Assembly: GCA_004022145.1 (NCBI GenBank) | Contig: RCNU01000045.1 | Length of the DNA: 19,627 nt | Source of the DNA: Paecilomyces variotii | Taxonomy: Eukaryota | Reading direction: 5' to 3' (one strand) | In this document: positions 1,700 to 19,627 of the stretch, piece by piece | How the letters are laid out: the number at the start of each line of letters is the position of its first letter | How positions within the stretch are numbered: the first letter of the stretch is position 1 | Notes under the pieces: generated by a model | Database searches by the model: none | Seen by the model: only the letters and a program-made list of their open reading frames with translations | What the model was told of the DNA's origin: nothing | Program-made: the position numbers and the translations under genes

Positions 1700-4600
1700 T
1701 AAGTTAGTTAATCTTAATTAACTTAAAAATCTTAAAAAGTTTACCTTTAGTAGTAGTTTAGTAAAATTATCTGCTATTATATTCTATATTTTAATAAACT
1801 TAATATTAATCTTATTCCTTTAATATAGGTTATATATATAATAGTATATAATATTAATATATTTTAATCTCTTATAAATATAAGTATCTTTAATTAATAA
1901 TAATAATATTTAATTATTTTTATAGACCTTAACTAGAGAATTAATAATAAAAGCTTACTCTTCTCTTATTATTAGCTTAAATTTATTTAGATTAATATAG
2001 TATTTATATTCTATATCTTTTAAAAAAAGGGCTAATTATTAAAATTATTTTATAGTTTAATATATAATTATATATTTAGCCTTTATAGTTAAAGTTATAA
2101 TAAACTTTTATTTTTTATTTAATTAACTTATTAAGCTATTAACTAAAATAAAAATATTCTTTAAAATTAATATTTAATTAGTCTTATTTATTATATAATC
2201 TAAGTTTAAATATTTAATAAATTATTAGTCTTAATTTATATTAAACTTAAGATTAAAGTATATAGTTAATTATAAGTATTTTATAAAGAATTTTAATATC
2301 TTAAAGTACTTTTTAAATAGATTTAATAGATATTAATTTAATCTGCCTATTATAAATATAATATTTAATCTTATTAAGATTATTAAATAAATTAAGCTAT
2401 TAATAATCTTTTAATACTTTCTTTAATTTATTCTTTTATTTTAAGAGTTAAATAGTTTTAAAAAGTTATATCTATTTAATAAGATATTAACTAAGTATAT
2501 TTTCTCTTTACTTATTTTATATTATAATAAGAGTTTCTTAGTATAATAAGATTAGTCTATTATTAATATTTAGTCCTTCTTATTTTAAATAATTTAAATA
2601 TTAAAGATTTTCTTTACTTCTTTTAAATCTTTTATCTTATATACTAATTTAAACTTTTATTTAAACTAATAGATATTCTCTATTTATTTTATACTAATTA
2701 AGATATTATTAATATATATTAAGAATAAAATCTCTTTCTCTAAATATTATAATAAATATAGATTAATATTAATCTATATAAAACTTATTTTTTAAAATAT
2801 TTCTATATAGATTTAATTCTAATCTCTTATAACTTATTTTAAATTATATAGAGATTAAAAAACTTTTAATACTATTTTTAATAATATATTTATTTTTAAT
2901 AGAGGTATTATATAGATTTTCTCCTTTAATATTAACTTTATAAAGGCATTATTAATATTTATAATATAATACTTATAATCTTCTATTATAATAATAGCTA
3001 AGAATATTTATAATATATTATATTATAAGATAGAAGTAAAAGTATATTTAAAATTAATATTATATTTTTAAATAAACTCTTAAATAATAAGATATACTTT
3101 AAGCTTTTAAAAAAAACTATTTAGATTATACTTTATAGCTAATACTTAATAGCTAATTATAATATTAGCTCTTAATAATAATATAACTACTTTAAAAGTT
3201 TTATTTATTTTAGCTTTAAATATACTTTACTATAGTTTATTTTAAGTAAGGTTATTAATTATAGTATAATATAAGTTTAAGATTAGAATATATTTCTTTA
3301 TTATATATACTACTATTATAGTATTTAATACTTATTCTATATATTTCTTCTAGTCTATATTAATACCTAGAGGTAAAAGATTTAATATAAGTATTATTTA
3401 ATATAATTTTTTAATATCTTATTTATTATTTAGTAACTTAATCTTCTCTCTCTTATACTTTATTATATAAAGAATCTTTATATAAGATATAACTTACTTA
3501 TTTAGCAGAGATAAGAGATTTATCTATAAATTCTTATAATTATTTAAATTATTAAAGTAAGAATAATTAAATATTTTCTCTTATTCTATAATTTTACTAT
3601 AATAAAATATCTTAATTTTTTTTAGTAAAAAGCTTTCTTTTCTTTTTAAAGAAATATTTTAATTTCCTTTTAATAAAATATTTCTTTTTTTTTTAAAGAA
3701 AAATTAAAATTTTCTTATAGCTCTTCTCCTAATTATTAATATTATTTTTCTTTTTACTTAAGAATATATATATATTTAAGATAATAGGCTAAATTACTAA
3801 TTAATCTCTTAAGTTTTTTATTAATACTATATTTAGTAATAATCTTTAAAAAATCTTAAAATCTAGGTCTTCTCTTAATTTATTTTTAAAGAACTTAGCT
3901 TAATAAATCTTAATAGTCTTTTTTATATTTAAAGCTTAAACTTTTTATTATTTATTTATTCTCTTAATATATCTTATAAAAATATAGATCTTATTTTAAT
4001 TTATTAATTTATTTCTTTATATATCTTATAGTAAAGATTTTAAGTTTATATATAATATTATTTAATATCTTTATACTCTTAAATAATTAATTAATAACTT
4101 AATTTTAATAAAGGCTTTTTTTAAAAATATTTAAACTCTATTAATTATTAATCTATTTAATACTTTATTTCTAATATATATATTAATTTAAGCTGCCTCT
4201 ATCTATAATTTAATTAAAAAGTTTAAATCTTTAAATATAGCTCTTATTTTTTTTAATAGTTTAATATATTTATTTTTAGCTTTATTTTATATTAATATAT
4301 ATAAAACTATTAATTTATAATAAATACTAAACTATTTTTTCTAGATCTTAAAAAGATTTTTAAATTCTAGTATATTATCTAATTATATATTAAGAATTTA
4401 GAGATTTATTATTATTTTAATCTTCTTTTTTTATTTATTTAAGATAAGGGCAGTATTAAATTTAGCTCTTATTAAAAATATTTATATTTTTCTTAAAAAA
4501 TTATTTATAATTATTAAGAAGTAAATATATTTATTCTTAAACTTTAGCACTTAATTATATATATCTATATAGATAAATTTAAGAATATTAGCCTTTTATA

Positions 4601-6380
4601 TATTAATAGTCTTTCTCTTATTTTTAATATTAGTTATAATATATATTATATATTAGTAGTCTATTACTACTTTAATAGGCTTCTTTAATATAGTTAAATT
4701 ATATAAGTTTTTAATTTTTTTAAGTTTAAAATAATTAATTCTTTTATATTATAATTATACTTTTCCTTAATTTTATTTTAATAAAATCCTTTTTTTTCCT
4801 TAATTTTATTTTAATAAAATTCTTCTTTTTAATCTATAATTATAGTATTAAGAATATCTTTAATAAAAAGTAATATAATAAATATATATTATAACTTAAG
4901 TATTTAATTTAAGAAGATTCTTTTAATAATATAAACTCTATATTTAATAATATCTTAAATTATAACTTTATCTAACTTATTTAATATAGATATTATTCTT
5001 TTATTAAAATATTTATATATATTTAATTATTAGCAGAATATCTTAGTTAATAAGAGATTTATCCTAAGGTTTAGTATAAGTAATATATTTTCTAGGTCTA
5101 ATATCTTCTTATTCTTATCTCTTAAAATAGTTATTCTTATATATTTTAAATATAGAATTTCTCTGCTTATATAAATATATCTTTATTAAATTTAAATTAG
5201 TAGTCTTTTAAAATAATAGTTTTTATTAGTTATATATAAACTAATATTATTATCTATATATTATTAGAATAAATTCTTACTAGTAATATTTTTTAAAAGA
5301 TAAATAATCTTATATAAGATTTAGTTATTAAAAATAATTAAAGCTAAGAATTTTAATTAAGATTAGCTCTTTTTAATATTTAAGGTTTCTTTTATATTAT
5401 ATATTCTATATTTTTTATTTTTTAATCTCTTATTCTTTAAGGATTAAATCTTCTTATAAATTTTATTAATTATCTCTATTATTATCTTATTTTAAATAAT
5501 AAGATTATTAGATATTTATTTAAGAAATTCCTTTCTTTATCTTTAATTATTTTTTATATTTCTCTAAATAATAAATAAGAATAAGTAATTTTTAATATAA
5601 TAATCTTTCTTATAGATATAGTATTTAATAAAGATTTACTTATTTTTTATTAAGAATATAATAGTTAATTTTATTTAAAGTTAAGTCTTTATTTTTTTTA
5701 AGATAGCTAAAATATTATCTATTTTTAAATTCTTATATATATTAATTATTATCTTAATTATAATATATTCTTTAAATAATACTAAAAATAATTATTATAT
5801 TTTAGTCTTAAATTTAATTAAAAAAGATATTATATTATTAAATATTATAATTCTCTTTCTTATTTATTATAATTAACTCTAAATATTTAAAATTATTTAT
5901 CTAGGAGTTATTTAAAAATATATAAATAATTAAATAAGTTAGTATTTTTAATTAAGGAAAGTTTTTATATATTTTGCTTATAAAGCCTTTTATAATATAT
6001 ATATATTATTAGAGTTAATAAATCTATCTTAATTATCTTTAAATAGATATTTAATAATTTAATATTAAATAATTATATTAGCTTTATTAAAGTAATTATT
6101 ATATAGCTTTTTAATAAATTTAATAGCTCTTTAATAATCTTTACTAATAAGCTATTTTTTATATAAATAAACTATTTCTTATAGTTCTCCTTTAAAAGAG
6201 TAAAAATAAGTTTTCTTTTTTTATTTTTAATATTATCTATTAAGAATATAATAATAGCAGATTAATATTTTAACCTTTAATATAATTTAACCCTTATTAA
6301 ATTTAGTACTTAATATAGTATTAAAATAGTTTTATTATAAATCCTCTTATATAAAAATAACTTATTACTATTAGTTTAAA
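1700..6380 (-). pseudogene. copia-B gag-pol relic (ends approximate)
   Basis: Zinc knuckle YYIYKKDYYIKNY (CYIC...H....C) ~5585-5625. Protease *YIDNNISLYI (WYADSGASSHM) ~5230-5262. Integrase *LDNILEF (RSDNAPEF) ~4365-4390 and IRAIFKDLNFLIKL*IEAA ~4190-4247. RT: KLKVYLII*EF (KLKARLVARGF) ~3075-3105, SLYNLK*VIRD* (SLYGLKQAARDW) ~2820-2855, YINN (YVDD) 2705-2716. RNase H: KYINIIYY (KHIDIAYH) ~1840-1865 and ADNFTKL (ADGFTKP) ~1755-1775. Confidence 0.9.
4761..4826. repeat. 33-bp tandem duplication (2 copies) inside copia-B pol
   Basis: ttttccttaattttattttaataaaatcctttt is followed by ttttccttaattttattttaataaaattcttct. The period equals 11 codons and it lies just upstream of the integrase HHCC motif. 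Confidence 0.8.
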
Positions 6381-6444
6381 CTTAAATATTTAGAATAAAA
6401 TAGTTTTTACTATATAATTATTTTTCCTAAATTATTATAAACTT

Positions 6445-6456
6445 AGGCTTATAATT
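6445..6456 (-). other. Primer-binding site of copia-B
   Basis: Minus strand reads aattataagcct directly after the 5' LTR, the RIP form of GGTTATGAGCC(C), the copia-type PBS. Confidence 0.7.
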
Positions 6457-6729
6457 AGTTAAAAAAAATAAATTTAGATAAAATTCTCTAGATTAATCTA
6501 ATAGCTTAAAGGATTAATAATATTTAAGAAAAAAGAGTATTAGCGCATATAATAGATATAAAATATATTTTTATATTTTTAGTTAGGGCAATAGATTTTA
6601 TATAGAGCTTAAGAAATAATTTCTCTAAGCTGCCTAATTTTATTAAAATAAAATTATTCTTAAAGATTTCCTTAAAGTAAAATTTTTATTATACTAGAAC
6701 TTACTAGTTTTAACTGCTATTTTATAATA
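6457..6729 (-). repeat. 5' LTR of copia-B
   Basis: Direct repeat of 1406-1678. On the element strand it starts TATTA (ancestral TGTTG) and ends AACT. Confidence 0.92.
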
Positions 6730-6734
6730 TTTAT
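6730..6734 (+). repeat. 5-bp TSD (TTTAT) of copia-B, right copy
   Basis: Matches 1401-1405. Confidence 0.75.
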
Positions 6735-8305
6735 TCTTATATATATATTTAATAATTTAATTAGTATCTATATTTATTAATCTATTATCTTAAGAGTTAT
6801 ATTATATTTTATATAGTATTTTATTTTAAATTATAAAAAATAGATAATATTTTTACTTTAATATATATAGAGTATAAATAAAGATATTATTTATATAACT
6901 GCTATTAAGCTTTAAATCTAGTTTAATAATATATTTATTTTTACTTTTACCTAGAATATTATATAATTATATTTATATTATTACTTTTTTTACTAGTAAA
7001 ATCTCTATATTTAATAAACTAAGACTTATTATTATATATATTCTTATATACTTTTAAGTTTACTATTTAGCTAATATATAAAATAGGTATTATTAAAACT
7101 ATTATATCTATAAAGCTATTAAAATCCTTTTTCTCCTTATCTTATTTTTATAGACTAGAGTTAATTTTCTTTTAATTTAATAGAATTTAAATGCTTTTTA
7201 ATAAATACTATTAATTAAAGACTTCTTTTTTAAGATAATAATAATCTATAGAGTTATATTTAAATATATAGTAATATCTATATTTACCTTTAGAATATAG
7301 TTTTTTATTATATATTTTATAAATAAAGTCTAGAGAGTCTTTACTTAGAGATAGACTCTTTAATAATCTATTTAATTACCTAGTCTCTTAAGCAGAAGTT
7401 TTATTTATAGATATAGCTAAGATTACTTAAGTATTTTTATAAGATTTAGTTTAATTAATAGCTTTAAAGTTAAGTTACTAAAATTCCTTTATTATTATAT
7501 TTATTAGAGGTTTAATTTATTAAGCTTATTTAATATAATAGAAGTTAGTTTAGGCTAATATTTTAAATTTAAGCTATTTAAGTATTAGTATTGCTATATT
7601 AAAGAGCGAGAGAGTTAAGCCTATATTATTTAATTATTTTATATTAGGATCTAGTTATAGTAATAGCTTATTAAAATATAAAAAGTTTACTTAAAGCTAA
7701 GCTATAGTTAATAATCTTTTTAATTATTTTAATATACTTATCTGCGTAAATTAGCTTATTAAGTATAATTTTAATAGTTTTAATTAGCTTATAGTCTATT
7801 TAATTATTAATCTAGCTCTTTATTATTAAGCTAAGCTTTCTCTATATTTTATAGACTTTAACTTTATCTTAAAGTATAAGTTTCTTAATAAATATATTAA
7901 TTAAGTTCTTATAATCTATAGTTTTAAAGACTTTTTTAATTAGCTAAAGCTAATTATTAAAGTTATTATTATTAATTAATTATTTAGCTACTATAAATAT
8001 TTTATCTTATATAGTCTTTAATAGCTTTAATTTTTAATAGGTTATAATTACTAAAGCTATTAAAGAGATTAATGCTATTAATAATATTATTATCTTAAAG
8101 AATTAATTTAATTAAAGGTAAAGGTCTATTAGTTTAACTTCTTATTATAAGTATTATTTAATTAAAGCTTTTAATTAAATTAAAGCTTTAAAATATTTAG
8201 CTTATCTATTTAAAATAGTAATAAGGCTAAGCTAAGCTTAAAGCTAATAAAGATACTTAATTAAAGAACTATTTAAAGGCTAAGCTAAAGTAATTTATTT
8301 AATTA
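6735..8305 (-). pseudogene. Outer copia-A gag and aspartic protease relic
   Basis: Gag N-terminal *LINNNNFNN*L*LIKKVF (QLTGDDNFDNWLQSIE.VF) ~7925-7985 and I*RKLSL...YADKYIKII ~7725-7850. Zinc knuckle YKIYNKKLYSKGKY (CX2CX4HX4C) 7280-7321. Protease *IVNLKV..NIYNNKS*F (WIVDSGA..NMCNDKS.F) from 7069 downward. Removing copia-B joins this segment to 1-1400. Confidence 0.8.
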
Positions 8306-8309
8306 CTAC
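8306..8309 (+). repeat. 4-bp TSD (CTAC) of the gypsy element, left copy
   Basis: ctac|tgttgtggg on the left and cccactaca|ctac (18578-18581) on the right. Confidence 0.85.
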
Positions 8310-8649
8310 TGTTGTGGGAAGATATATTAAGACTTAGCATAGAGTCTTTAAGCAAGAAGGTATTAAGAAGGAAGAGAAAGGTATTTAGCTTTAGAGCTTA
8401 GAGTAGAGCTAGAAAAGAAGCTCTAGCTATAAACTAATATAGTAAACTAATAATAATCTGATACTAAACTAATATTAAACAATAATAGAAAGGAAAAGCT
8501 AATTATTTTATTCTAAATAACTAAAAGGTATTATCTCCTTATTATTCTTCTTCCTCTCCTACTTTACTTATAGACTTTTTAAAGACTTTAAATAAAAATA
8601 TATAACCCCTTAACTAATTATATTTTTTATACTGATCTTTCTTATTATA
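8310..8649 (-). repeat. 3' LTR of the gypsy element
   Basis: Colinear with 18238-18577. About 38 differences in 340 bp by manual count, all transitions, no indels. Confidence 0.95.
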
Positions 8650-8653
8650 TAGC

Positions 8654-8665
8654 TTCCCCCTCTCT
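8654..8665 (-). other. Polypurine tract of the gypsy element
   Basis: Minus strand reads AGAGAGGGGGAA, ending 4 nt before the 3' LTR. Confidence 0.8.
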
Positions 8666-8679
8666 AAAAGTAAATATCT

Positions 8680-11560
8680 CTATTTATCTTCTTTAGTTAT
8701 TGTAATCTATACTATCTCCTTTTTTTAATACTATAAATTATTCCTGAAGCAGGAATGCTTTAGTTTTTAATATTATATATATTTTAAAACTTCTAATTTA
8801 TAAAGCTAAGTTTCTTTCTTTTATAGATAATCTTAGACTAATAATATATCTTATTTTAGTATAAAATATAGCTCTGCTTTAACTTTTAAACAATTTTAGT
8901 TTAGTTAATTAAGTATTACTCTGCCTATAGCTATAATTCTATTTATTTAAATATTAAAAGGCCTAGATCCTCCTTAATTAAATCTTATCTTATTTTATTC
9001 CCTATAATTAAAACAATAGATATTATTAAGATCTATTTTTTAATTCTCTAATATTAGCTGATATAGATTACTAATAAAGGTTACTTCTCCCTGCCTAAAT
9101 ATAATATCTCTTAAACCTATAATTTTCTCAGACTTATTTCTAGCAATTAGTCTAATTCTTAGGATTATAAAGCTCTAGCCTATTCTTCCCTTAGGGATTA
9201 TAGACTCTATATTTAATACTCTTAGCTTATATCCCCTAAAATAGCGGACTTATAGCCTATATTTATTATAATTATATAGCACTAACTAGATTAAATAAAT
9301 CTAGATATCCTATATAATAACTTTTTAAAGAATACTTTTAGATAAGTTTTTAAGCCCTATTAATTTTTTATTCTCCTTCTTATAATAAAGAGCTGTTTTT
9401 ACTTCTATAGTAATATATTATAATATTCCTTTTATTAGTTTCTCTTTAAAGGGTATAATCTAGAAAACCCTATTTATTTCCTAATAATTAAAATCCTCTC
9501 TTATTATAATACTTAATTAGATATATTAGTCCTATATCTTATTTAAGGTAAAGTCTTCTTTGCTTAGGTTAAAATATTTTTTATTCTTATATTTAGATTT
9601 AGGATATTCTTTAGCCCTATATAGATTATCTTAAGCTTTATAGTATAAGCTGCTAGATATATTATTAGAAGTATTTATATTAATTAATCTAAGATCTCTA
9701 AATAGTCAAACTATCCCTAATACTAAAGATTTCTTAGGGAGAAAGTTTTTAAATAAAAATTCTTTAACTTCTATATTATCTCTATCTTCTATACTTTTAA
9801 GACTTCCTAAAATAAGACTCTTTATCCTTCCTTTAATTTAGCTATTGCTAGGTATGCCTAGCATCTGCTTAGCCTCTATATTATCTTTAAACTATATAGT
9901 TCTAGCATTCTACATATTTTTTAAATACCTAGTTTTTTTTTTAATAAAGAGGTCTTTTAAATTTACCGCAGAAAAAAAGGGCTTTATATTAATTTTTAAA
10001 GCTCTATTAAAAGGTTCTATTACCTATTTACTTCTAGAGGTTTTGCTTATAAATTATTTAGTTTTTTTAAATAAACTTCTATAAAGATAGGTTATTATTT
10101 TAAATAATCCTTTCTTTTATTACTTTATTATTGCCAGCTTTATATTTCTAATTATTTTTAATACTCCTCTAGCTTCTTTTATAGATATATTCTTTCTTAT
10201 ACTAATTATATTAGCTAATAATTATATATATAGCTTATAGATTAATTTAATCTTCCCTAAATTAACTTACTATAAAACTTCTCTAATCTTTTTAGTATTT
10301 ATATTTAGTCTATTTAGCTAGGTCTATACTTTAATTTCCTCTTTATCTAGGTAGTAATAATCTTTAAAGTTAGTATTAAATCTCTATTCTCCTTAAAACT
10401 ATTTTTAGTAGTCTATATTAATATTCTAGGATTTAAGATTATTATTATTATCTATAAGCATTTTTAACCTTTTTTTAAGGATGTTATTTTTTATATTCTT
10501 TAATCTTATTATGTTTTATATTTTTTTAATATAAATTTAGCATATAGCGGCGGGTTCAATCTTTTCTTCCCTTAAAAATTTTAATACTTTTTTATCTTCT
10601 AGATTAATAATAGCCTTTTTTATTAATATAAATATATTAATCTTATATTTATATCCTTTTTCTAGCTATTTCTCCTTATCTTAAGTTTTAAACTTTTTTT
10701 CCCCTTTTGGCTTCTTAGGACTCTTAATTTTTTTTTTCCCTTTCTTCTCCTCCTCTATATTTTTTTCTCTTTTATTTAATATTAGATCTATTAATAAGCT
10801 TTTACCTAAATCTTTTATCTAATATCTTTTCTTTTCTTTTATAATCTCTTCTAAAAAATTATTTTCCCCTATTCTTATTTTAATCTTTTATAGCTCTTTA
10901 TTAATAGGCTTTTAAAAAATTAGTCCTTCTTTATTAAGGGCTTTTCTTAAGATATTTCTTGCTTTTCTAATATTAGTTAGTTAAAGGCTCTTTTTAATTA
11001 ATATTTCTTATCTCCTAATATTATAAAGTCTATTAATTTATGCTCTTGCTAGATATATAGCTACTATTCTCTAGTCTTTAATATTAGATATTAATCCTCC
11101 TATAGCTACTAAGGTCTAATATAATTATCTAATAATTAATAAGACTTAGTTTATAGTCTTTTAGCCCTATTTCTCTATAGCTTTATAATAACCTTTATTA
11201 GTATATTTATAGTTCTTTTTTATTTATATTTTTAATTCTTTTAGCTTATTAATAGCTAGCACTTTTTTTTTTATTTCTTCTAATAGCTCTTATTAGTTTA
11301 AGAAATTATAAAAATTATTAGCTGCTTTATTGTGCCTGTTTTAAAAATTTAAAATAATTACTACTATATTGCTTATAAACTAAACTTTCTCTTCTTTATT
11401 ATTAGCTTTATTTATTATCTTTTTTATAAGCTCACAAATTTTGCTAACTATAGTATATATATATATTTTAAGTTAAAGAGCTTTATCCTAATGGACGATA
11501 TTTTATATTTCTAATATATTTTTTTTTATTTTTAATATATATCTTTGCAGAGCAATTCTT
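8680..11560 (-). pseudogene. RIP-degenerated additional ORF (ORF3) of unknown function, ~950 codons, ends approximate
   Basis: One minus-strand frame reads as protein throughout, e.g. KLAII, EAKQMLGIP, EEKIEPAAIC*IY, IFRQGEVTF. Its stops are sparse and almost all TAA/TAG, as expected from RIPed Gln/Arg/Trp codons. It includes an E/K-rich stretch at ~10560-10900. Confidence 0.65.
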
Positions 11561-11699
11561 TAAAATAGTTTTTAAATAAAAAGATATACTTAAAAGATAA
11601 AATAAAGTTAAGTTTAATTTAATTTAGTCTCTAGTTACTTCTGCTATAATATTATATAATATAAAAAGTAAGATTTTTATAACAAGATAAGAATTCTTT

Positions 11700-14600
11700 A
11701 TTTATTACTTATATTCTTTATCTAATATTTTTTATTTTTGGCTTTATTTATAGACTTTTTTAAGATATTTAAGCTAATATTATATGTTTTTTAATTATCT
11801 CTTTTTTTCTTCTTTCTTAATTATTATTAGGCATTTTTAAATTCTTCCCCTTCCCTAAAAAAAGATGCCCTTATTTTAAGTTTATCCTCCTTTTTTTCTT
11901 ATTATAGCACTAATACTTATTTTGTTATTATCCTTCTATTTCTTCTTTTTTTAAACTAACTTTTTATTTAATATTAAACTTGCTTTACTGCTAGCTTTCT
12001 GCTTCTCTTTTTTTAAATTAATATTTTTAGAAGGAGAGTATTAAAACTATAACTATATATTTTAATCTAGGTAGTATTTAATCTATATTATTATTATTAT
12101 TACTTAGTTATTAATTTTCTTGCTTAAGTATTATATTATTATTTATAGCTAGTATTTTATTTTAGTCCTCTTATAAATAATAGCCTTTTAAGTAATTTCT
12201 ATAAATTAGGTCCTTAAAAGGTATATTATCTAATTTTTTAAGCTTATAAGATCTTTTTCTAAGAACTTCTTTAATCCTATATAATCTAAGCTAGCAATAT
12301 GCTAGTTTTGTAGAGTAAGACATCTTAAGCTTTATATTATAAAGCAGAATAAGTTATTCTTTTATTAGTTATTCTTTATAAAGCTATTTTTTATTATTAA
12401 AGACTTTCTTACTAGTTTCTCTTATATATTAAATATAAAATTAGGCCTTTTTTATATCTTAATCTTAGAGCTCTATCTATTATATATAAAAGAGTAAAAG
12501 ATCTTTTATAGTCCTAACCTTATCCTATATTAAAGTCTTTTAGGTAGATATTTCTAGTTTAATTAGTAGTATAATATTATATCCTATAATTACTTTAAAT
12601 AATATTAAGCTTATAAAGGTCTTAACTATATTTCTATCTGCCTAGATTATTGCTAGTAGGTAATTTACTTAATTTATCCTTATTTCTTTTATAAATTTTC
12701 TGATATTATATATAAAGGACTTATATATAACTTTAACTATTTTATTTACTTATAGGTTATACAGCGAGATTTTAATGTAGTTAATTTTATATTTCTATAT
12801 TAATATATTGACTGCGGCTTTATTCTCTAGTTCTCTATTATTAATAAGAGTTTTTATTACTCCTTAATAATAAATCTAGTCTTTTTATAAAAATTTAGCA
12901 ATAGCTTTTAAAGTAGGGCTATTAAGGGCTCTATATTTAATTTAGCCGAAGTTGTCCTAAAATATAGTAATATAAGTCTTTCCCTTATTAGGCGGTATAA
13001 TCTTGCAGATATCTAGATATAGCTTTATTCTCTTTAGTAGAATAAATATCGACTATAAAGCTTCTTCTATATATTCTTTATCTGCTTTCTGGTATTTATT
13101 ATATGTCTTTATTTATCTAATAATATACTTATATAGGCCTTTCTATTAATATTAATTAGCTATCTTTTAGTAGATTACTTTATGCTTATAATATTTATAC
13201 TCTTTATAAAGGGCTGTAAGAATTTTTTTTTATTTTTTTTTATTATTAATAATTATGCGGTAAGGCTGATTTTATTATACTCTCTAGAAAAGTATATTAT
13301 TTTAGACTATATACTTTAGGGCCTCTTTTTTAAACTTAGCATACTATTCTCTATCTATATTGTCTAGTTTTATTATAGTTTATAACTATTCTATAATTAG
13401 TAAAGACTTTTCTGACTAATATAATATAGGTATTAATTAAGGGATATTATCTAATTTTACCTCTTATATACTAGTATAATAGACTACATAAAATTATAAG
13501 TCTAGGAATTTCTCTATATTATTATTTTCTGCTTCTTCTAGATTTTGCTTTATTACTAGCTTCTAAGATAACCTATCTATAATTAAATTCTTTTTCCCTA
13601 ATATATAGATAATATTAAAGTTAAATAACTAAATTTAAGCAATCTACTAAATAATTACTAACTTAGAGAGATCTATAACTATTTTATTCAGTTACGCTAC
13701 TAGAGTTTTTATATCTATTTTTAATTAAAAATATATACTATATAGATATATTTAGAATTTATAAAATACCTTTAGCACTGCCTTATACTTTAGCTTTTCT
13801 TTATTATATTATCTTTTTGCCTATATCTATATTTTACTTTTATATCTAGCTAGGTATCTCTTATTAAACTCCTTTTTTTCTTAAGTAAGTTAAGCCCCCT
13901 ATTTACTGCTATTAGCATTAGTATTAATAATAATTATGCCTTTCTTTTTATAGTTAATTAGCTTAAATACTAGTGCTATTATCAGGGCCATTTTTAAAGT
14001 ATTTATTACTTCTTATTTTTCTGGCCCTTAAAGGAAGTTTTATCTTTTCCTTAATATTAAGTATATTAGCTTAGCTTTAATAATATATCTTTTAATCTAT
14101 ATCTAATAATAAGCTATAATCTCTAAAAATCCTCTTACTTTTTGTAAGTTCTAATAAGGTAATTATTTTAAGATCTTAATTACCTTAACTAACTTAAGAT
14201 ATCTCCCCTTAGTATTATATATATAGCCTACTACTTTAATTCTTAGTATTATAAATTATAATTTCTCTCTAATAATTATTAAACCTATAAGTTTAAGATT
14301 ATATAATATCTTATTAATATTCTAGATATATTTAAATATAAACCTTCTAATCCTCGGCAGTGTCTTTTCCCCCTTATAATTAGTCTTAGGTCCTTATATT
14401 AGTATATTATCTAGAAATATATTATAGATATTAAGAATATTATCTGTTAGTATTTATATAACTCTTTATATAAATTCCTGTATTATATTTATCTATCTTT
14501 AAGATAATTTAGCTTAACAAATTAAACTAATCCCTAGTATATAGAAAGCTATTAAATCCTGCAATTCTTTAGCTAACTCTAACTAATTATACCTAAAGAA

Positions 14601-17600
14601 TAAGTCTATAAGTATTAATACTAGCATTCTATTAAACTCTTCTAAGAACTTATTAAAAGGGAATAGATTAATATTTTATATTATTACTTAATTAACTTCT
14701 ATAGCTATATTAATTAGCTAATATTTATTATTTTTCTTTTTTATTAGGAATTATAAATTTTAATAGGGTCTTTAACTATATTTAAGGATCCCTATATTTA
14801 TTCTTTTTTTTATTATTTCTTATATTATGCTATAGAATACCTTTAGTATTAGGAAGCTCTTTACCTATTATAATTTATAATCTATAGTCTAAATAATAAT
14901 TAGAGGTGCAACTTCTAGGCGTATTTATTTAATTTCTTTAAAAGTCTAGATAAAAACTGCTTTTTAGGTGAAAAGTATCTCTATTAATAGTTCTTTCTTT
15001 TTTAGCTATAAATTATTATCTATAATAAGATTCTTTAGATAGTCCGGTATTAATCTTATTTTTTTTTTAATATCTAATATCTTTAGCTAAATATATTTGG
15101 TAAATTCTTTATATATTTTTTTTATATTTTTTTAGAGGTTCTTATAATAGTGCTCCCTAATAATTTCTTTTTATCTTAATAACCCCCTTAAAGCTATTAT
15201 AGGTTTGTTTAATATATTTACTAAATAAATCTTTTTATATTTCTTCTTATACTATATATTAACAGAATATTTTATTTTTATAGTAAAAAGGTTATACCTT
15301 TTAGACAGTCTATACCCTTATAACCTTCTAACTCCTTTATTTAATTTAGTAGGTTTAAATATCCCTACCCTTTTGCTTTTAATTTCCTCTCTCACTTTAA
15401 AGCTAATATTATTTATTAAGTATAGCTCTTATAGGCCTTCTCTATTCTTAATCTAATACTTATTATTCTTTTTTAGCTTTAGTTTAATAACTCTTATGCC
15501 CGGGATAATAGATTATATAATATTTCTTCCCTTAATTTATTTCTTAGGTTATCTATTAAAAATACTTAAATAATAGTTTAATTCTTTTAGTCTATAAAAT
15601 AAATTATACTCTTTATTATTTTATTTAATAGAGTAATATACTGTAAATATATTTAATACTTAAAAGGTTATCCTAGAATATAATTATAATTAATCTTATT
15701 ATTTATTATAAAGAAAGGGACTTTATAATAAAAAGATCTTATTTATATAGGTACCTCTTTATAGAGATTTATAAAAGGGGTCTGCCCATTATCTGCTAAT
15801 ATTATATTACTTCTAAATTTCTAACTTATAATAAGTTTATAATAATTTGCTATATCTTTATATATTATATTAATTTTGGCTCTACTATTTATTATAATAT
15901 TCTGTGCCTTTTTATAATTATTAATTTTAATTAGCAATCTTAGAGTTATAGCTATATATAGCACTTTATTTTTATTAAGAGGCTTAAGTTATAAGGATGT
16001 ATAAGTATATTAATCTATACTATTTACTATATACTCTATATTTAATATAAAGGTATTAAACTGTACTCCTTTGGCATTATAGAATATTACCTTTATTATT
16101 ACTTACTGTAGTTATAAGGTAAATAAGGCCTTATATAAATTAAGAGATAGACTAATAAGGTCCCAAATTAATATCTGAACTCTAGTATCTAATATCTAGT
16201 TTATAACCCTTATTATATTAGTAGTCCCTTTTAGCTTATTTATAATTTTAAACCTTTTTAATTTCTGCTTCTCTTTTATCTTAATAATTTTTTTATTCTT
16301 ATTTTATTTAGGCGTATCTTTTATTTTTTTTTTAATTATCCTTATTTTCTTAATTATATTTAGAGGCTAATAATTGCCAAATTAGTTTATCTTAATTAAA
16401 AGAAATCTTTATTCTTATTTAATTGCTTTCTATAGCTTTTTTTTATATAATTATTTAATCCTATTTTGCCTTTTTTTTACTCCTTAAGGCTTATTTAATC
16501 TTATTATATTAATAGAGTAGTAATTTTTTATAATATCCCCGGCTTCTTCCTTAAAGCTTAAGTTATCCCTAGGCTGTCCTAGCATAATCAACTAGATATT
16601 ATACCTAATTAAGCTAATATTCCTTTACTCTTCCTTTAGTCTTTATTTAATAATCTCCTTTTATAATATATTCTCCTATATAAGATAAATAACTTCTCTA
16701 TTTTATCTTTTTAGCCTAAAGTAAAATTGCAGTCTTCTCCCTAATAAATAAGTTTCTAATTTAGGAGGCTTTTTAAATCTAGATAATAGGATTAAATATA
16801 ATTAAGAGCCCAGCAGAAATTATATAAATTTAGAGATATTTTAGATTCTTTAGTTAGGTTAAATCTTAAAGGCGCCCTAGCTTATATATTTATGCTAGTA
16901 TTAGGTATATTACTATTAGGCCTTCCTATATACTGCATTCTATATAGTTTTAACTTCTTAAACTCTTTTATTAACTAATTAATCTATAACTATTTTATTA
17001 ACTTTATTTTAATACTCTATTATTTAGTCTTATTCTTATTCTTATTTAGATAGGTTTTATTAAATTTAATAAGAAATTATATATTATCTTCTTTAATTAT
17101 CTTCTTCTTTATTAAAGCTATTATATCTTAATCTTTCTCTAATTTGCCGCTGTTAAAGTAATAAAAGGTTTTAATTATTTTTATCCTATTTATTACCTCC
17201 TTATAGAAATTAGTATATTTAATAATAGATAGAGTATAGTAGTTTATATTAACTTCTAAATAACCTATTATTTAAGCTCCTTTAAAAATCTTTAAAAATA
17301 CTAAACTCCCTGCAAATATTAGCTTAACTTATCTAAAATTATCAGCGCTTTTAATATAGCTTAATATTCTTAGTTATATTTTTTTAAGTCCTTAGAGCTA
17401 TTATATTTTATATTTTTAAATCTTTCTAGCTATTAAATATTATATTTCCTTTAATACTTATTATAATAAGCATATTCTTATTTAGTCGCTTCTACTAATT
17501 TTAGGTAGTTCTTTTTTTTATATTTAGATTAAATATTTATCTATAATAATACTGATAGGCTATAATAATCTATAAATTATTTAGTTTTTTCCTCTTTTAG

Positions 17601-18200
17601 GAGTTAATTTATCTTATATAACCTCTTAAAAAGCCTTAGGTAATAAATAATATTATCCCCTTTAAAATATAATACCCCAGGATTTCTAAGTATTAGTATT
17701 TATAAAGCTAATATAATCTAGATTAGCTATATTATTAATAATCCTATATTTTTAAATACCTAAGCTATTTATATCTCTAGATTTAGTAATATTAAAAAGC
17801 TAGGAGTCTTTTTATCCTAACTAATGCTAAAAAGATTAATACTTTTCTCTATATTTTTTTAAAGGAATAGTAATAAAGATAATAATAAGAAATTCTTCTA
17901 CTTTTTAATAAATAATTCTTATTTAATAATTTCCTATTCTTTCTAAATTTCTGCTTTTTTTTTATATTTATTAAGCTCTTCCTTATTTTTAGCAGTCCTT
18001 TCTTTCTCTTATTATTAATATATATTTTTGCCTTATATTATATTTGCTGTCTCTATTAATTTAAGAGATATATTTATCTCTTTTTATTTATAATAGTAAT
18101 CTTCCTTAGCTATTTTGCTTATCTTTTTACTATTTTTTACTTCTTTTTTTAGTTTTAGCCTTAACCTTAGCTTTTAGTTCTCCTTTCTCCCTTATTTTTA
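11700..18200 (-). pseudogene. gypsy gag-pol relic (ends approximate)
   Basis: Zinc knuckle YNFCWALNYI*SYY (CX2CX4HX4C) 16783-16824. Protease NSR (DSG) 15881-15889 and ILG*PF 15662-15679. RT: PY*NL*FLIKKK (PYRNPWFLVKKK) ~14735-14770, DLFFRYN* (DLFSGYDQ) ~14585-14607, FLDN (FLDD) 14406-14417 followed by GPKTNY...LPRIRRF. RNase H NTNANS (DTDASG) ~13910-13926 to IDRLS (ADGLS) ~13565-13580. Integrase HHCC ~13090-13210, DDE core ~12730-13020, GPY-type motif LRLYRI ~12275-12290. Confidence 0.92.
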
Positions 18201-18219
18201 TTTAATATTTTAATGCCTC

Positions 18220-18237
18220 CTATATTTAGCTCTAATT
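18220..18237 (-). other. Possible primer-binding site of the gypsy element
   Basis: Minus strand reads aat-TAGAGCTAAATATAG right after the 5' LTR. TAG could be a RIPed TGG. The tRNA cannot be identified. Confidence 0.35.
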
Positions 18238-18577
18238 TATTATAAAAAGATATATTAAGACTTAATATAGAGTCTTTAAGTAAGAAGATATTAAAAAGGA
18301 AGAAAAGGGTATTTAGCTTTAGAGCTTAGAGTAGAGCTAGAAAAAAAGCTCTAGCTATAAACTAATATAATAAACTAATAATAATCTGATACTAAACTAA
18401 TACTAAATAATAATAGAAAAGAAAAGCTAATTATTTTATTTTAAATAATTAAAAGATATTATCTCCTTGCTATTCTTCCTCCTCTCCTGCTTTACTTATA
18501 GATTTTTTAAAGACTTTAAGTAAAAGCATATAACCCCTTGACTAATTATATTCTTTACACCGATCCTCCCCACTACA
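18238..18577 (-). repeat. 5' LTR of the gypsy element
   Basis: Direct repeat of 8310-8649; on the + strand it ends ...cctccccactaca. Confidence 0.95.
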
Positions 18578-18581
18578 CTAC
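18578..18581 (+). repeat. 4-bp TSD (CTAC) of the gypsy element, right copy
   Basis: Matches 8306-8309. Confidence 0.85.
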
Positions 18582-19627
18582 TTTATTAATTAAGCTAGCT
18601 ACTAGCGCAGGTAACTACTATTAAAGCCCTTAGAAGTACTAAAATTATATTAATTAGCTCTATTATATAAATTTATAGAAGTATAACTTATATTAAAATA
18701 TATATATATAAACCGCGGAAAAAATAACTTAAAATCCGATTTTTAATAGATCTATATTATTATTAATATTTTCCTATATTTAGATTATTAAAAATAGTGC
18801 AATAGAACTAGAGAAATAAGGAGAGAATAGCTTAATATATAAGTAAAGCAGATAGAAGTTAGCGAAAATAAGAAATACTTTAAATCTCCCGAGTAAAAAT
18901 ATTAAAATAAAGCTAATATTAGATAAATTTATATAATAAGTATATCTTAATAGTAATTTTTTATTACTATTATAGCTACGCCTAAATATATAGATTTATA
19001 TAATAAACTTTATATAGTTTAAAATAAGCCTTTTTATAAGAGAAGATATTATTATAAATTAAGGCTATAATACTAATATTATAAACTATTAAGACTAAGT
19101 TAAAATAATAAGATAACTAGATCTATATATAATAATTAAATTAGCTAATTATATAATATATAGCTATTAAGATTAAGATATTAAGATAACTTAGTAGAAT
19201 AAATAGATAAATAAATAATCTCCTTAAAGAATAGAAGTTAAATAGATTAATAATTTATTCTAATTACTATTAAACTTAATCTTTAACTCTATTACTTATA
19301 GATTACTACTTACCTGTATCTTAACCTCTTATCTTATATCTTATTTAACTAGTTTAACTAGTTACTCTTATTAAAGAGCTTTCTCGCCTTAACTCTTTAT
19401 ATATAAATAATATAATATAATATACCTCTACTTATATTAGGAGACTAATAAAATAGCTTAGAGATAAACAGATATATAGTATATAAGCTACTTAAACTAA
19501 AGAAGTAATAAAGGCTAAAGGAGGTAAATACTATAGTATATTTACTCTAGTACTATAATCTATATAGGCTTATAAAATTAACTATCTTATATATATAAGT
19601 AAGCTATTAAATCTATATAAGCAAATT
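18582..19627 (-). mobile_element. Continuation of the RIPed host sequence: probable gag start or 5' leader of copia-A, possibly its 5' LTR, then unassigned repeat DNA
   Basis: The CTAC TSD makes it contiguous with 8305 before insertion, and it has the same RIP composition. No partner LTR is present in the window to fix boundaries. Confidence 0.45.

Follow-up and report, generated by a model that had tools for sequence, protein, structure and literature searches.

The minus-strand segment that runs from position 11529 to about position 8800 very probably represents a genuine, separate third gene of a fungal Ty3/gypsy-type element that was killed by repeat-induced point mutation (RIP). This gene, here called ORF3, lies in a 19,627-nt stretch of Paecilomyces variotii DNA (the window, to whose first letter all positions refer), and the same reading, held with the same confidence, puts its length at about 900 to 950 codons. 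The initial annotation had proposed a conserved accessory gene, located after the integrase and before the 3' LTR, for the element family, and had speculated about an oxygenase fold for the product; the accessory gene is borne out by un-mutated and divergent homologues that are co-linear with the segment and by repetition of the segment in other copies, whereas the oxygenase speculation found no support.

The element is an LTR retrotransposon of about 10.2 kb, located on the minus strand within the 19.6-kb window and framed by a 300-nt direct repeat. The features surrounding ORF3 were as follows:

18247..18546, minus strand: 5' LTR, from direct repeat D1 and the pairwise alignment of the LTRs
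13692..14024, minus strand: RNase H domain of pol, from Pfam RT_RNaseH_2 and RT_RNaseH and from PDB 7q5b_A
~12170..13350, minus strand: putative integrase, recognized by eye, with codon starts of remainder 2 (mod 3), the same frame as RNase H
11530..12000, minus strand: spacer between pol and ORF3, in which no frame is stop-poor throughout
11842-11856, minus strand: second purine tract, AGGGAAGGGGAAGAA, in the spacer, read from the sequence
8653..8665, minus strand: purine tract AGAGAGGGGGAAG, read from the sequence, adjoining the 3' LTR on its upstream side
8319..8618, minus strand: 3' LTR, the core delimited by the repeat tool as direct repeat D1 (length, 300 nt; identity to 18247-18546, 92%)

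Pairwise alignment suggested a 3' LTR extent of about 8311-8637, with the exact LTR ends being blurred. From its position, the tract AGAGAGGGGGAAG at 8653-8665 likely served as the polypurine tract. The LTR-versus-LTR alignment contained 293 identical positions, 31 transitions, and 0 transversions, indicating that the pair diverged by RIP alone. The G+C content of the window was 12-23%, a single ORF of at least 60 codons was present in the 19.6 kb, and the RIP indices were extreme, with (CpA+TpG)/(ApC+GpT) values of 0.08-0.41 and TpA/ApT values of 1.27-1.71. Depletion of CpA and TpG, excess of TpA, and differences between copies that are mostly transitions were thus all found, and the element is one ruined by RIP.

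Pfam searches of window translations in which stops were written as X found RNase H alone, with matches to RT_RNaseH_2 (E of 2.2e-5, 24.9 bits, gathering cut-off of 29.8) and RT_RNaseH (E of 8.4e-5, 23.1 bits, gathering cut-off of 24.8). Among PDB sequences, the Ty3 Gag-Pol chain 7q5b_A matched the pol translation with an E value of 2.6e-5; the RT palm was undetected in this RIP-degraded translation. The stretch at about 13350-12170 had neither a Pfam nor a PDB sequence match and contains what we take, by its motifs, to be an integrase with a RIP-altered HHCC (H>Y, C>Y), a D,D35E core, and a GPF-type C terminus. The gypsy order, with RNase H followed by integrase, is suggested in part by these motifs. 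According to stop counts, the apparent frame of pol shifts twice along the element.

Downstream of pol, one minus-strand frame stood out. Over positions 8680-11560, the frame with codon starts at multiples of 3 had 71 stops in 960 codons, versus 146 in 960 and 135 in 959 in the other two minus frames (Fisher p = 8e-9; binomial p = 7e-12). The deficit was present in all three sub-blocks and, between about 11400 and about 9000, in the majority of 300-nt bins. One sense-strand frame had initially been described as protein-like across the region, free of any evident frameshift, and a comparison of stop densities between frames had been proposed; the stop deficit agrees with the first description, and the absence of a frameshift is supported by the homologous protein fragments described below, all 13 of which aligned as single HSPs, co-linear and in one frame. 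The plus-strand frame in register with ORF3 was also stop-poor (62/960), as one would predict for the antisense of a coding frame when the strand is poor in A.

Homology supported an ORF3 extent of 8797..11529. The first residue of the un-mutated fragment P0003, a methionine, falls exactly on the window ATA at 11529-11527, and this codon is most likely the former start, judging from the alignment. At the other end, the gene may extend to about 8690; over the last ~100 nt leading up to the purine tract (8653-8665), stops were too dense for the ORF3 end to be called. It is quite unlikely that the region is instead a C-terminal extension of the Pol polyprotein, co-translated with the integrase. 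Strand and order are those of pol, ORF3 lies directly downstream of it, and RIP together with small indels could mask a continuous frame in an element whose pol itself changes apparent frame twice. Against this, ORF3 has codon starts of remainder 0, versus remainder 2 (mod 3) for RNase H and integrase, and the two are separated by about 470 nt without a stop-poor frame: over 12000-11701, the three minus frames had 11, 13, and 13 stops per 100 codons, and the ORF3 frame upstream of 11530 is stop-dense and includes a triple TAA. The methionine of P0003 at the start of homology argues weakly in the same direction, since a gene caller picks a methionine anyway.

ORF3 has homologous proteins in sequence databases. 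When the ORF3 frame, with stops written as X, was used as a phmmer query against 1.84 billion representative proteins, 12 proteins had E values of ≤1e-3, including 9 at ≤1e-10 and 3 at ≤1e-30. In tblastn searches against the window, 13 fragments fell on ORF3 at E ≤ 1e-3, with starts divisible by 3 and in co-linear order from 11529 to 8848. Together, the database proteins, including P0014, covered residues 11-376 and 447-921 of the ORF3 frame. Two fragments were particularly close. P0003 (239 amino acids) matched the window with an E value of 2e-70, with 131 identities and 107 differences, and 106 of these differences required nothing beyond C>T or G>A, versus a mean of 26.8 and a maximum of 38 in the shuffle control. 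For P0002 (261 amino acids; E of 3e-84; 154 identities and 106 differences), the corresponding number was 99 of 106 (shuffle mean, 24; maximum, 36). Of the window stops aligned with P0003, 19 of 20 stood opposite Q, R, or W, as did 14 of 14 of those aligned with P0002, and the amino acid composition of both fragments was normal. Because the differences are explainable by RIP and the stops face Q, R, or W, P0003 and P0002 are considered to come from essentially un-mutated copies belonging to the family of the present element.

More distant relatives were also found. P0004 matched ORF3 with an E value of 4e-37 (phmmer), and P0005 matched the middle region with an E value of 7e-26 (BLASTP). In tblastn comparisons, before allowing for RIP, identity to the window was 28-38% for P0005, P0006, P0009, P0011, P0014, and P0015 and 48% for P0007. 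Open frames were kept, and motif blocks were held in common, in P0005, P0006, P0009, P0011, and P0014. The relatives P0006, P0011, P0014, and P0015 are “hypothetical proteins” of P. variotii, and two other relatives came from Logan contigs, found by a word-based search. Searches for longer relatives, which were word limited and used P0006 or a scaffold alignment as the query, returned no intact full-length homologue; for the scaffold alignment, low-complexity words of the RIP-mutated row probably swamped the search. A scan of IMG/VR gave 67 pattern matches, of which 0 were confirmed.

The alignments divided ORF3 into the following parts:

10816..11529, minus strand: N-terminal domain, residues 11-248, from the P0003 match
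10684..10809, minus strand: charged low-complexity stretch, to which P0012 and P0005 align
10432..10683, minus strand: middle region with a possible Cys/His relic, from the BLASTP alignment to P0005
9316..10221, minus strand: helical piece (P0004), Ser/Thr/Glu/Pro-rich segment, and first half of the C-terminal region (P0002), from phmmer
8797..9669, minus strand: conserved C-terminal region of about 300 residues, to which P0006, P0007, P0009, P0011, P0013, P0014, P0015, and L001 align

The N-terminal domain, of about 240 residues, appears to be long and helical, judging from its residues and from weak Pfam matches to helical families (E of at least 0.045). The E/K-rich stretch noticed at the outset is present at about 10684-10809 and is kept in the relatives P0012 and P0005; it includes a conserved basic block, K-S-P-K-K-P-K/R (KRTKSPKKP in P0005), that resembles a nuclear-localization signal and may be one. 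The middle region contains the TGC TAA ATT TAT string that had been read as a CxxC relic. The string exists, at 10531-10542 rather than at 10511-10522, and it is better read as C-x2-H, Y, or C: the window C-X-I-Y stands opposite C-I-E-H of P0005, and upstream of it YKY stands opposite CEC. A small Cys/His motif in this region is therefore possible on the basis of the P0005 alignment. The Ser/Thr/Glu/Pro-rich segment looks disordered from its composition. The C-terminal region contains the conserved blocks NLSRSILQK..QDIRVYLIWLAL..GEHR..RY.RG and DQGG.G.FD..V.GVTAIGKA.

ORF3 was also found in other copies of the element. Four sequencing runs of the source organism were mapped to positions 7800-19000 at 80% likeness, with 10,391-22,273 contig pieces falling on the element. 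All eight ORF3 bins lay under repeat contigs in all four runs, with summed depths similar to those of gag-pol. In run X1, the summed depth was 4282-10249 for the ORF3 bins, 5581-11512 for the gag-pol bins, and 598-1660 for the flanks, where contig depth is not equal to copy number. Nearly all changes between copies were transitions: in this run, C>T was seen at 669 places, T>C at 508, G>A at 404, and A>G at 292, versus about 58 places with transversions. Since the ORF3 bins are repeated like gag-pol, ORF3 belongs to the element family and is not a private insertion; the possibility, raised with the initial annotation, of a separate insertion missing from other copies is thereby contradicted. 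Contigs on the element also occurred in an RNA metatranscriptome run (X19), in which DNA carry-over is possible and transcription is not implied.

A few weak contig joints, each side of which matched over 20-28 letters at 80% likeness, connected LTR positions to about 11741 or 11363, the intervening letters being purine rich. They hint that some copies may lack ORF3, which would point to an ORF3-less subfamily or to ORF3 having been gained long ago downstream of what was then the 3' end. The joint to about 11741, as a trace of ORF3-less relatives, bears on a further explanation that we regard as unlikely, namely, that the region is foreign, being either a host gene captured once or a nested mobile element, with no role in the life of the retrotransposon. 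The second purine tract at 11842-11856, situated just before the region as if it marked an older 3' end, would suit this explanation, as would the absence of any known retroelement domain from ORF3 and the listing of its named relatives as ordinary hypothetical proteins of P. variotii. However, repeat contigs cover every ORF3 bin in the same manner as gag-pol in all four runs, no internal repeats surround ORF3, and its orientation is that of pol. Pfam revealed no transposase, RT, or recombinase signature in the un-mutated ORF3 fragments, and no full-length host paralogue was found in the word-limited searches. In addition, open frames and motif blocks persist in homologues that are about 30-37% identical, an unlikely outcome for a passenger in a repeat exposed to RIP. 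An ancient capture that later turned into an accessory gene would also be compatible with the preferred reading of ORF3 as a third gene of the element.

ORF3 constitutes a small, unannotated family that, as judged from sequence comparison, would lie outside known protein families; it is known from fragments and “hypothetical proteins” of P. variotii and from Logan and metagenome contigs. Pfam searches with 12 fragments, including un-mutated ones, gave no family assignment at E ≤ 1, and NCBIfam gave nothing meaningful for the ORF3 fragments. Searches of PDB sequences with profiles A5, A6, and A8 had best E values of 0.2, 1.4, and 0.16, which were taken as noise, and ESM Atlas searches with P0003 and with residues 85-240 of P0006 returned no usable match. 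AlphaFold2 models had mean pLDDT values of 34.4 (P0006 with A5) and 33.9 (P0014 with A6); the alignments were shallow and the models unusable.

Two specific identities were not supported. That ORF3 encodes an oxygenase with a 2OG-Fe(II)/PhyH-like double-stranded beta-helix, as had been speculated from the visual impression of two short segments, is exceedingly improbable and close to refuted. The conserved His of the GEHR block could be cited in its favor, but the 12 fragments contained no such Pfam family, PDB sequences gave no match, and alignments A5 and A6 contained no HxD/E...H metal triad; the segments, including DI.I......LH, which had been said to recall a beta-helix loosely, sit in predicted helix in a model of very low confidence. 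An env-like membrane glycoprotein can be given equally little credence. Errantiviruses and Athila elements carry env-like genes between the integrase and the 3' LTR, and ORF3 occupies this env slot, but no signal peptide and no shared hydrophobic anchor was found in a hydropathy scan of 10 fragments, none of them a full-length protein. The N terminus of P0003 is hydrophilic (MEENALEIRN...), and no 19-residue hydrophobic segment was common to the relatives: P0009 alone reached a 19-residue hydrophobicity of 1.82, in a stretch that contains D and K and that scored 1.12 in P0011.

Fungal LTR retrotransposons are usually described as containing gag-pol only. Errantivirus and Athila elements, the rotifer elements Juno and Vesta, and an orchid element resemble the present one in having an extra gene placed after the integrase and before the 3' LTR or polypurine tract, the gene being lineage specific in each case. 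Juno and Vesta, from bdelloid rotifers, have accessory ORFs after the integrase (PMC5408684), and the orchid Ty3/gypsy element has a captured m6A demethylase domain (PMC9289625). ORF3 differs from all of them in that it has no sequence similarity to any of them, no membrane features, and no recognizable enzyme domain and in that its host is a fungus. In P. variotii itself, the parts of the genome report that were available describe RIP-made AT-rich regions and a Tf2-type element of about 7.1 kb, Tn123 (231,587-238,677) (PMC6300479). Tn123 is similar in its LTRs, in its pol with RNase H followed by integrase, the latter putative in the present element, in its many copies, and in its destruction by RIP with CpA bias to leave AT-rich relics. 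The present element, at about 10.2 kb, is longer than Tn123, at about 7.1 kb; the excess corresponds to the ~2.8-kb ORF3 plus the spacer, and the available parts of the Tn123 description contain no third ORF (PMC6300479). No account of a fungal gypsy or LTR retrotransposon with a third or additional ORF was found in literature outside Repbase-type libraries and subscription journals.

On the reading of ORF3 as a third gene of the element, it would have had its own reading frame, starting about 470 nt downstream of the fading pol signal and ending a short distance upstream of the polypurine tract and the 3' LTR, and it would have been intact when this copy inserted, with later changes being almost only C>T and G>A. 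The predicted architecture would comprise a helical N-terminal domain, a charged linker resembling a nuclear-localization signal, a possible Cys/His motif, a disordered-looking Ser/Thr/Pro/Glu segment, and the C-terminal region. Tentatively, and with considerable doubt, we suggest that the product was a nuclear, nonenzymatic accessory or adaptor protein that served the element and was made from its own messenger. Such a messenger would be spliced or would start at an internal promoter in the spacer, and the protein would enter the nucleus and aid the element nucleoprotein by promoting nuclear entry, by tethering it to chromatin, or by blunting host silencing. The broader proposition, to which we give slightly less than even weight, is that ORF3 founds an undescribed family, a selected and integral third gene of an ascomycete Ty3/gypsy lineage that acts in the nucleus, possibly against host genome defense such as silencing or RIP-linked recognition. 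If this is true, ORF3 would correspond, in fungi, to the accessory genes that complex retroelements carry, and an extra protein of about 900 residues that falls outside known families and is conserved among divergent copies and between species would amount to a new fungal retroelement accessory function. The presence of un-mutated fragments in public data makes ORF3 recoverable, expressible, and testable, and heavily RIP-mutated relics such as this one stay readable when databases contain un-mutated relatives.

The order integrase, ORF3, and LTR was observed in this window alone. A metagenome scan yielded one locus, L001 (1512 bp), that contained the ORF3 C-terminal part only, with unrelated sequence upstream. 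The P. variotii proteins P0006, P0011, P0014, and P0015 are truly homologous to the C-terminal region of ORF3, matching the window with E values as low as 2.9e-20 and having motif blocks in common; they differ in being fragments of 103-372 amino acids or composite gene models, with P0015 running into unrelated sequence. Past the ORF3 C terminus, P0015 runs into an apparent pol RNase H/integrase junction motif, recognized by eye only, which would correspond to the opposite order. Pfam lent no support to a pol identity of this tail, and a RIP-aware Smith-Waterman comparison with pol scored 238, versus 234 ± 10 for shuffles, under a scoring scheme that drifts positive. P0014 contained two partial copies of one motif.

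Weak contig joints in run X2, one of the sequencing runs whose contigs matched the element, link 8545/8636 to 11741/11363, and also 18455 to 11741. These joints bypass most or all of ORF3, the fossil accessory gene, with short purine-rich letters (minus strand) in between, and they hint at copies of the element that are ORF3-less or ORF3-deleted. Two purine-rich tracts were located, one between pol and ORF3 and the other just upstream of the 5' LTR and directly before it:

11842-11856, minus strand, second polypurine-like tract, AGGGAAGGGGAAGAA
~18566-18590, minus strand, purine-rich tract, GTAGTGTAGTGGGGAG

The tract between pol and ORF3 is similar to the likely polypurine tract at 8653-8665, and it may be a 3' polypurine tract of former times or a central one. 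The tract before the 5' LTR is similar to the sequence by which a contig from an RNA library extends past 8637. The 5' LTR may therefore lie directly against the 3' end of another, related element, arranged in tandem or brought there by recombination; a joint in run X2 that "goes back 9897" points in the same direction.

Further observations concern relatives of the ORF3 C-terminal region. In the P. variotii hypothetical protein P0014, the motif ILQKII.QD..YYL..LALFG is present as two partial copies, and in a second such protein, P0015, the sequence continues beyond the ORF3 C-terminus; the stretch that follows carries the motif PGPNHRVADGLSR, which by eye resembles one found where RNase H meets integrase in gypsy pol. 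The gene models of P0015 and of P0013 (a further relative) and P0014 appear to rest on rearranged remnants of the element. At L001, the only metagenome locus with the ORF3 C-terminal part, positions 1-1115 lie upstream of that part and have no relation to ORF3; this copy is truncated or rearranged there.

Along gag-pol (17400-12000, minus strand), the stop-poor frame switched twice:

~17400-16800, minus strand, stop-poor frame of remainder 0
~16800-15600, minus strand, stop-poor frame of remainder 1
~15600-12000, minus strand, stop-poor frame of remainder 2

These switches may represent indels or natural frameshift sites.

Run X19, a food-fermentation metatranscriptome, yielded many contigs on the element (window 7800-19000), including 976 with a likeness of 99% or more; their presence could reflect repeat transcription or DNA carry-over.

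Elsewhere in the window, a second pair of direct repeats was detected:

1405-1684 and 6456-6735, direct repeats of 280 nt, 86% identical, 5051 nt apart

The surroundings of this pair, with a GC content of ~12%, are more AT-rich still than the element, and the repeats probably belong to another LTR element, older and destroyed by repeat-induced point mutation.
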